Shown here: one piece after another, positions 61,106 to 61,122 of the stretch
Layout of the letters: the number at the start of each line of letters is the position of its first letter
How positions within the stretch are numbered: position 1 is the first letter of the stretch
DNA from: Escherichia coli
Lineage (GTDB): Bacteria; Pseudomonadota; Gammaproteobacteria; Enterobacterales; Enterobacteriaceae
Direction: 5' to 3' (one strand)
NCBI RefSeq assembly: GCF_024502345.1
Contig: NZ_JALDNN010000001.1
Length of the DNA stretch: 64,000 nucleotides
Translations under genes and position numbers: made by a program
The notes under the pieces: model-generated
What the model was told of the DNA's origin: nothing
The model's database searches: none
What the model saw: the letters and a program-made list of their open reading frames with translations, nothing else

Positions 61106-61122
61106 GGCAAGATTTACGCCAG
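61106..61122 (-). promoter_or_regulatory. candidate sigma-54 promoter for xdhABC
   Basis: Minus-strand read: TGGCGT-aaatc-TTGCC with correct GG-N10-GC spacing, about 95 nt upstream of the xdhA start. Confidence 0.4.

Follow-up and report, generated by a model that had tools for sequence, protein, structure and literature searches.

The textbook example of a σ54 promoter served by remote tandem enhancer sites is glnAp2 with its activator NtrC. At many σ54 promoters IHF sits between the enhancer and the promoter. Some σ54 promoters are subject to cAMP-CRP: prpBCDE together with PrpR, and glnAp2 and dctA, which are modulated by CRP.

The closest described relative of the locus analysed here is the xdhA promoter of Escherichia coli K-12. 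Zhao et al. 2009/2010 (NAR 38:1273, PMC2831329) list b2866 xdhA with tttcTGGCGTAAATCTTGCCTGctta at -110 to -93, and report that xdhA expression rises 4.9-fold upon σ54 induction and falls 2.1-fold in an rpoN deletion mutant. In Table 1 of Bonocora et al. (PLoS Genet 2015, PMC4591121) the site appears as OS29 (motif CTGGCGTAAATCTTGCC, gene xdhA, ChIP-seq FAT 11) with the flag 'C', i.e. experimentally confirmed in EcoCyc, and the OS29 peak overlaps a region from an earlier, independent σ54 ChIP-chip study. The same authors name their peaks binding sites, not promoters, point out that many σ54 sites are transcriptionally inactive, and discount the majority of those Zhao et al. targets that rest on microarray data only. 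In an in vitro genomic SELEX with the RpoN holoenzyme, the ygeV/ygeW spacer was recovered and the xdhA upstream region is absent. A Pseudomonas putida xdhA entry (PMC11997794) was set aside, as it concerns a different organism. The σ54 promoter of xdhABC, which encodes xanthine dehydrogenase, is already known, through the 2009 study, the 2015 ChIP-seq and EcoCyc, and is not new.

The cluster to which xdhABC belongs encodes the route by which gut bacteria break down urate and purines anaerobically, a pathway linked to uric-acid homeostasis in the host. One gut-urate paper ascribes strain differences in urate consumption to regulation, and engineered probiotic strains bypass the native control of the urate cluster. 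Here we analyse the xdhA upstream region and its companions in a 64,000-nt stretch of E. coli chromosomal DNA, hereafter the window.

The -24/-12 element upstream of xdhABC

RefSeq annotation of the identical stretch gives the gene order actS (ygeR), a divergent spacer, xdhA-xdhB-xdhC and the convergent ygeV, beyond which lie ygeW-dpaL(ygeX)-ygeY-hyuA-arcC, yqeB, yqeC, mocA and ygfK-ssnA (Table 1). The window strain is a non-K-12 E. coli; the 701 bases around the motif, found in 5411 of 5426 complete E. coli genomes, are 100% identical to those of O121 strains. The K-12 xdhA promoter (EcoCyc, PMC2831329, PMC4591121) and the one in the window are one and the same, with identical 17-mer, gene and distance; there is no difference at the promoter, and the RefSeq xdhA of the window strain begins 13 codons earlier.

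Table 1. Promoter elements, candidate upstream sites and genes in the window. Offsets are in nt relative to the predicted transcription start.
Feature	Positions	Strand	Offset	Basis or remark
σ54 -24/-12 element of xdhABC, cTGGCGTAAATCTTGCC	61106-61122	minus		PSSM, conservation, published 17-mer
Predicted xdhA transcription start	61095	minus		19 nt downstream of motif centre (Bonocora convention)
Shine-Dalgarno GAGGGGA for ATG 61050	61056-61062	minus		sequence; partly conserved across genera
CRP-like site of xdhA, T-run + cATCACA (TTTTA-N6-TCACA)	61155-61170	minus	-67.5	conservation; CRP assignment putative
Candidate enhancer dyad 2 of xdhA, ACTCATATTGATA	61220-61232	minus	-131	conserved columns
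Candidate enhancer dyad 1 of xdhA, TATCACATTGATT	61241-61253	minus	-152	near-invariant columns
xdhA	58753-61050	minus		ORF list and RefSeq annotation of identical region
xdhB	57864-58742	minus		ORF list and RefSeq annotation of identical region
xdhC	57388-57867	minus		ORF list and RefSeq annotation of identical region
xdhABC operon driven by the promoter	57388-61050	minus
ygeV, enhancer-binding protein, presumed activator	55570-57348	plus		Pfam scan, GAFTGA seen
Extra dyad near ygeV	55500-55512			ygeV-ygeW divergent spacer
ygeW dyads	55375-55414		-234/-205	pattern scan
ygeW CRP-like site	55244-55259		-77.5	also in Citrobacter
ygeW σ54 promoter, OS30, CTGGCACACTTATTGTT	55185-55201	minus		16.1 bits, top score in window
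ygfK dyad, TATCATAATGATA	45734-45746		-202	perfect
ygfK CRP-like site	45628-45643		-97.5	perfect
ygfK CRP-like site	45598-45613		-67.5
ygfK σ54 promoter, OS31, GTGGTGCGATTGTTGCT	45549-45565	minus		11.75 bits
ygfT dyad	30364-30376		-199
ygfT CRP-like site	30493-30508		-68.5
ygfT σ54 site, OS32, TATGCCCGTTTATTGCA	30542-30558	plus		published ChIP-seq site

An earlier note, made from the letters of this DNA, had proposed a σ54 promoter here on the strength of TGGCGT-aaatc-TTGCC with correctly spaced GG and GC. Read on the minus strand from 61122 to 61106, the element is indeed c-TGGCGT-AAATC-TTGCC (TGGCGT is preceded by cgtttc, and TTGCC is followed by tgctt), with GG at 61120-61119 and GC at 61108-61107; this GG-N10-GC arrangement is the canonical σ54 spacing. 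The element is intergenic, points in the sense direction toward xdhA and lies a short distance upstream of it. It departs from the optimum at both ends, with TGGCGT in place of TGGCAC and TTGCC in place of TTGCW.

As a bare pattern in 64 kb, the xdhA element is at chance level. The window holds 5 copies of TGGC-N7-TTGC where 4.3 are expected, and on a PSSM built from 38 published intergenic σ54 sites, with the four sites of this cluster left out, the element scores 12.0 bits and ranks fifth in the window (the training sites themselves score 7.7 to 21.0 bits, median 16.6); for 64 kb, with both strands counted, 3.3 matches at or above this score are expected. Within the 430-bp actS-xdhA spacer no other match on either strand reaches 5 bits, and the expectation derived from the PSSM scan for a match of at least 12 bits there in the right orientation is about 0.01. 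Elsewhere in the window, four further σ54-like motifs at 863-879 (plus), 6405-6421 (plus), 41621-41637 (minus) and 48026-48042 (plus) score 11.8-13.8 bits, three of the four above the xdhA element. None of the four is listed among the high-stringency ChIP-seq sites that have been published, and they probably match by chance; because motifs of such similar score are missing from the published sites, PSSM score alone is not predictive.

The comparison of orthologous xdhA upstream regions, which the earlier note had put forward as a check, came out in favour of the motif. Taking one genome per species, we collected 32 loci encoding XdhA relatives, 29 of them with upstream DNA, and [C/A/T]TGGCGT-N5-TTGC[C/T] is present 55-83 nt before the xdhA start in all 29. 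These loci represent 11 genera: Escherichia, Citrobacter, Kluyvera, Atlantibacter, Buttiauxella, Hafnia, Yokenella, Enterobacillus, Klebsiella (K. indica), Trabulsiella and Pluralibacter. All ten core positions are invariant in the 30 aligned sequences, and the mean majority-base fraction is 0.80 for the five spacer bases and 0.58 for the surrounding 220 nt. An invariant core amid a drifting spacer and drifting flanks is the pattern expected under selection on the σ54 contacts. The distal part of the actS-xdhA spacer (about 61270-61450, beyond dyad 1) cannot be aligned between the window strain and divergent Escherichia lineages (L002-L005); the stretch from dyad 1 through the ATG does align between them.

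These data bear directly on the reading that the xdhA motif is a functionless chance match. The window counts of both the pattern and the PSSM, which stand at the expected level, would suit that reading, but the invariance across 29 loci, the ChIP-seq and ChIP-chip occupancy and the rpoN-responsive expression refute it, and we give it a negligible probability.

The distance to the gene depends on the start codon chosen. The spacing of about 95 nt between motif and xdhA start given in the earlier note holds for the ATG at 61011 (K-12-type, 752 aa), whose K-12 equivalent is the one used in K-12-based papers, and does not hold for the RefSeq start, ATG 61050 (765 aa), which lies 13 codons before ATG 61011 and 56 nt from the element. 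The 'distance 84' of Bonocora et al., counted from a predicted start 19 nt past the motif centre, lands exactly on 61011. The longer form is probably the correct one: in the cross-genus alignment the Shine-Dalgarno block has a majority-base fraction of 0.7-0.8 at most positions, and tblastn matches to XdhA begin at residue 1 in most genera. The predicted leader, from 61095 to ATG 61050, is 45 nt long, and the corresponding predicted leaders in the orthologues measure 28-56 nt. Searched against Rfam at E<=1, the leader and spacer returned zero matches; therefore, the conserved blocks upstream of xdhA are not a known RNA element.

Occupancy by σ54 could in principle be poised or non-productive, with xdhABC transcribed from a σ70-type promoter. 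In keeping with this, Bonocora et al. stress that binding is not promoter function, the rpoN effect is modest (2.1-fold) and comes from a study whose target list has been criticised, and in the literature searched we found no mapped xdhA transcription start. Against it, the element is sense-oriented, its predicted start lies 45 nt from an ATG with a conserved Shine-Dalgarno, its core is invariant in 11 genera, and it is accompanied by upstream elements at fixed distances of the kind typical of an enhancer. Moreover, xdhA responds to σ54 induction and co-varies with the other σ54-driven operons of the cluster. A scan of the actS-xdhA spacer for σ70 promoters and terminators gave nothing above chance; its one weak σ70 consensus match, against 1.0 expected, falls in non-conserved DNA, and we rejected it as a promoter for xdhA. 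Looked for in the alignment and in the σ70 scan, the two outcomes that the earlier note had named as refuting (no conservation of the motif in orthologues, and σ70-type start data) yielded nothing that speaks against the promoter. A non-productive site is highly improbable, and we consider it very likely that 61106-61122 on the minus strand is a real σ54 promoter of xdhABC.

Dyads and CRP-like elements at four promoters

In Bonocora et al. (PMC4591121), the rows next to OS29 are OS30 (ygeW), OS31 (ygfK) and OS32 (ygfT), and all three sequences could be located in the window. The ygeW and ygfK companions that the earlier note had invoked do exist, and these two elements are placed relative to their genes as the xdhA element is to xdhA.

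Alignment of the DNA upstream of xdhA reveals three conserved islands besides the promoter. Two of these are TCA-N3-TGA dyads, TATCACATTGA (61243-61253) and TCATATTGATA (61220-61230), with an outer symmetry TATCA...TGATA. Counted from the predicted start, their centres lie at -152 (+/-3) and -131 (+/-2) in 28 of the 29 orthologous loci, the spacing from dyad 1 to dyad 2 is 20-22 bp, and the DNA between the dyads and the promoter is not conserved. In the window, the dyad pattern TATCANNNTGA has 12 matches against 1.8 expected, a count that 0 of 100 shuffles reach. Nine of the 12 fall in the four σ54 promoter regions, where dyads lie 130-235 bp upstream of every one of the cluster promoters (xdhA, ygeW, ygfK and ygfT), and the divergent ygeV-ygeW spacer holds three of them. 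The ygeW dyads recur at identical positions in Citrobacter (L034), the one at -234 is also present in Buttiauxella, and the ygfK-type promoter of Kluyvera has a dyad at -197.

A perfect dyad, TATCAAGATGATA, lies at 53558-53570, about 290 bp inside the ygeX/dpaL coding sequence; it is also found in the Citrobacter orthologue (L034 14335-14347), is absent in Buttiauxella and has no σ54-like motif downstream of it. This copy may be conserved merely as coding sequence.

On the strength of this distribution, we lean slightly towards reading the TATCA-N3-TGATA dyads as candidate YgeV binding sites, i.e. as the enhancer. Among the searched papers that mention ygeV, none describes such a dyad site. 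Identity with a Fur box or an FNR box was rejected on half-site orientation and spacing.

The third conserved island, TTTTTTA-N4-cATCACA-N-TT (61172-61152), lies between the dyads and the promoter. Its other strand reads AAnTGTGATg, a good CRP half-site, and the 16-mer TTTTA-ACGTCA-TCACA has 2 mismatches in 10 relative to TGTGA-N6-TCACA, the distal half being only a T-run. The TCACA half is centred at -67.5 in 27 of the 30 sequences and at -68.5 in the other 3, and this half and its flanks are near-invariant. We scored as CRP-like those 16-mers with at most 2 mismatches, of which the window contains 37 against 27 expected; since such 16-mers are common, the argument rests on their positions. 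The other three promoters each have such a site (Table 1), and the Kluyvera ygfM promoter also carries the CRP-like sites of the ygfK type.

CRP genomic SELEX lists ygfK, ygeV<>ygeW and ygfT<>ygfU as targets and does not list xdhA. For the ygeV-ygeW spacer, a recent paper mentions a native Crp site; it also reports that glucose represses urate degradation. CRP-like co-sites at about -67.5 to -77.5 of each of the four promoters were not found described in the literature searched. IHF was also considered for the -67.5 element and rejected: WATCAANNNNTTR fits poorly by eye, its conserved TT being displaced by two positions and the 3' TTR missing, and a better fit by the same visual comparison is the opposite-strand CRP half-site AAnTGTGAT. 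We regard the -67.5 element as a candidate site for CRP or another bending protein, in the place that IHF has elsewhere; that the protein would be CRP itself is a tentative assignment. That all σ54 promoters of the cluster share a dyad enhancer (130-235 bp upstream) together with a CRP-type site (at -67.5 to -77.5, and at ygfK also at -97.5) is, in our judgement, a possibility falling just short of an even chance.

YgeV as the presumed activator

YgeV (592 aa) comprises, according to Pfam, a PAS domain, a σ54 AAA+ domain (residues 272-439, with GAFTGA), an AAA lid and a C-terminal Fis-type HTH. Its gene lies 40 bp beyond xdhC and, as the earlier note had supposed in speaking of a single enhancer-binding-protein gene around these promoters, is the only σ54 AAA+ activator gene in the window. 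The YgeV/RpoN regulon that the same note had suggested for the whole cluster is published in outline: OS29-OS32 correspond to xdhA, ygeW, ygfK and ygfT, and the 'YgeV iModulon' of Lamoureux et al. (NAR 2023) includes xdhABC, ygeWXY, ygfK and others, ybiY among them, with σ54 promoters noted. Lamoureux et al. further cite a drop in ygfT expression upon mutation of ygeV, the primary report being Iwadate & Kato 2019.

Across the 11 genera, ygeV adjoins xdhC in eight (Escherichia, Citrobacter, Atlantibacter, Buttiauxella, Yokenella, K. indica, Pluralibacter and Trabulsiella). A locus-level look found no ygeV beside xdhABC in Kluyvera (3 species), Hafnia and Enterobacillus, all of which keep the promoter; in Enterobacillus, ygeV was not seen within 3 kb of xdhABC. 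These absences hold for the xdhABC locus; a protein homology search with YgeV returned E. coli copies only.

The surroundings of xdhABC vary in other ways too. In Kluyvera, xdhC is directly followed by a ygfK-type σ54 promoter with dyad and CRP-like sites (L035 10480-11012, L038 10483-10848), which drives ygfM-xdhD-xanQ-guaD-ghxQ, and the ygeV-to-ssnA block is missing at that position. In Hafnia (L037), xdhABC and its σ54 promoter form an isolated unit among housekeeping genes, flanked by dapB and ispH/ileS, and ygeV is absent within 10 kb. A Pluralibacter MAG carries another σ54 AAA+ activator gene (L029 1978-2769) on the same strand, ending about 200 bp upstream of xdhA; its product and YgeV share 37% identity across the AAA+ domain.

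The promoter could be a genuine σ54 promoter and yet respond to an activator other than YgeV, either an enhancer-binding protein encoded elsewhere or NtrC, with the dyads binding a different factor. The genera that lack an adjacent ygeV fit such a reading, as they retain the promoter and mostly the dyads, and so does an NtrC SELEX peak inside xdhB/xdhC, but the actS-xdhA spacer contains no NtrC-type TGCACC-N5-GGTGCA. The AT-rich dyad superficially resembles part of a Fur box, although its half-sites point the opposite way. The literature searched yielded no direct ygeV-xdhA experiment: we found neither an xdhA measurement in a ygeV mutant nor direct proof of YgeV activating the xdhA promoter. 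On the other side, the dyad is common to all four promoters, including that of ygfT, which is cited as ygeV-dependent; three dyads lie in the divergent spacer of ygeV itself; and ygeV is both the sole enhancer-binding-protein gene of the window and the neighbour of xdhC in most of the genera. Weighing these points, we find a different activator unlikely, and YgeV the likely activator of the xdhABC promoter.

The best explanation as a whole, in which we place high confidence, combines an RpoN promoter of xdhABC with a proposed YgeV/dyad/CRP mechanism. RNA polymerase-σ54, whose binding is shown in the literature, would sit on the xdhA element as a closed complex, and the transcript would begin close to 61095, with a leader some 45 nt long. 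Opening of the complex would need an AAA+ enhancer-binding protein, for which YgeV, encoded beside xdhC, is the best candidate. YgeV would bind the two TCA-N3-TGA dyads at -152/-131, which should lie two turns apart and face the same side of the helix, and the -67.5 element would bind CRP or another bending protein, which would aid looping and tie expression to carbon status. As the same three-part layout is seen at ygeW, ygfK and ygfT, the purine/urate catabolic cluster looks like one RpoN/YgeV regulon.

The potentially new parts are only the shared dyad and the CRP-like co-site, both of them predictions. If true, they would provide a defined operator for the uncharacterised regulator YgeV and a mechanism by which glucose represses the degradation of urate in the gut, and a defined YgeV operator plus a CRP co-site at each promoter would make regulation of the cluster directly testable.

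Comparison with described σ54 systems

The proposed architecture is close to that of glnAp2/NtrC. Both promoters have GG at -24 and GC at -12 and two dyads that lie over 100 bp upstream and share a face of the helix, and both NtrC and the presumed activator YgeV are AAA+ proteins with GAFTGA and a Fis-type HTH, the binding of YgeV to the xdhA dyads being predicted. The two systems differ in the dyad, which is TATCA-N3-TGATA at xdhA and TGCACC-N5-GGTGCA at glnAp2; in the sensory part of the activator, which is a PAS-type region in YgeV and a receiver domain in NtrC; and in the intervening conserved element, which is CRP-like at xdhA as opposed to IHF in the glnAp2 comparison. With the σ54 promoters subject to CRP (prpBCDE, glnAp2 and dctA), the xdhA promoter would share a CRP-type site between the enhancer and the promoter, and its pathway too is repressed by glucose. 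Unlike those promoters, xdhA has a CRP-like site of which only the proximal half matches well, it is missing from the CRP SELEX, and the role of CRP there is a putative one.
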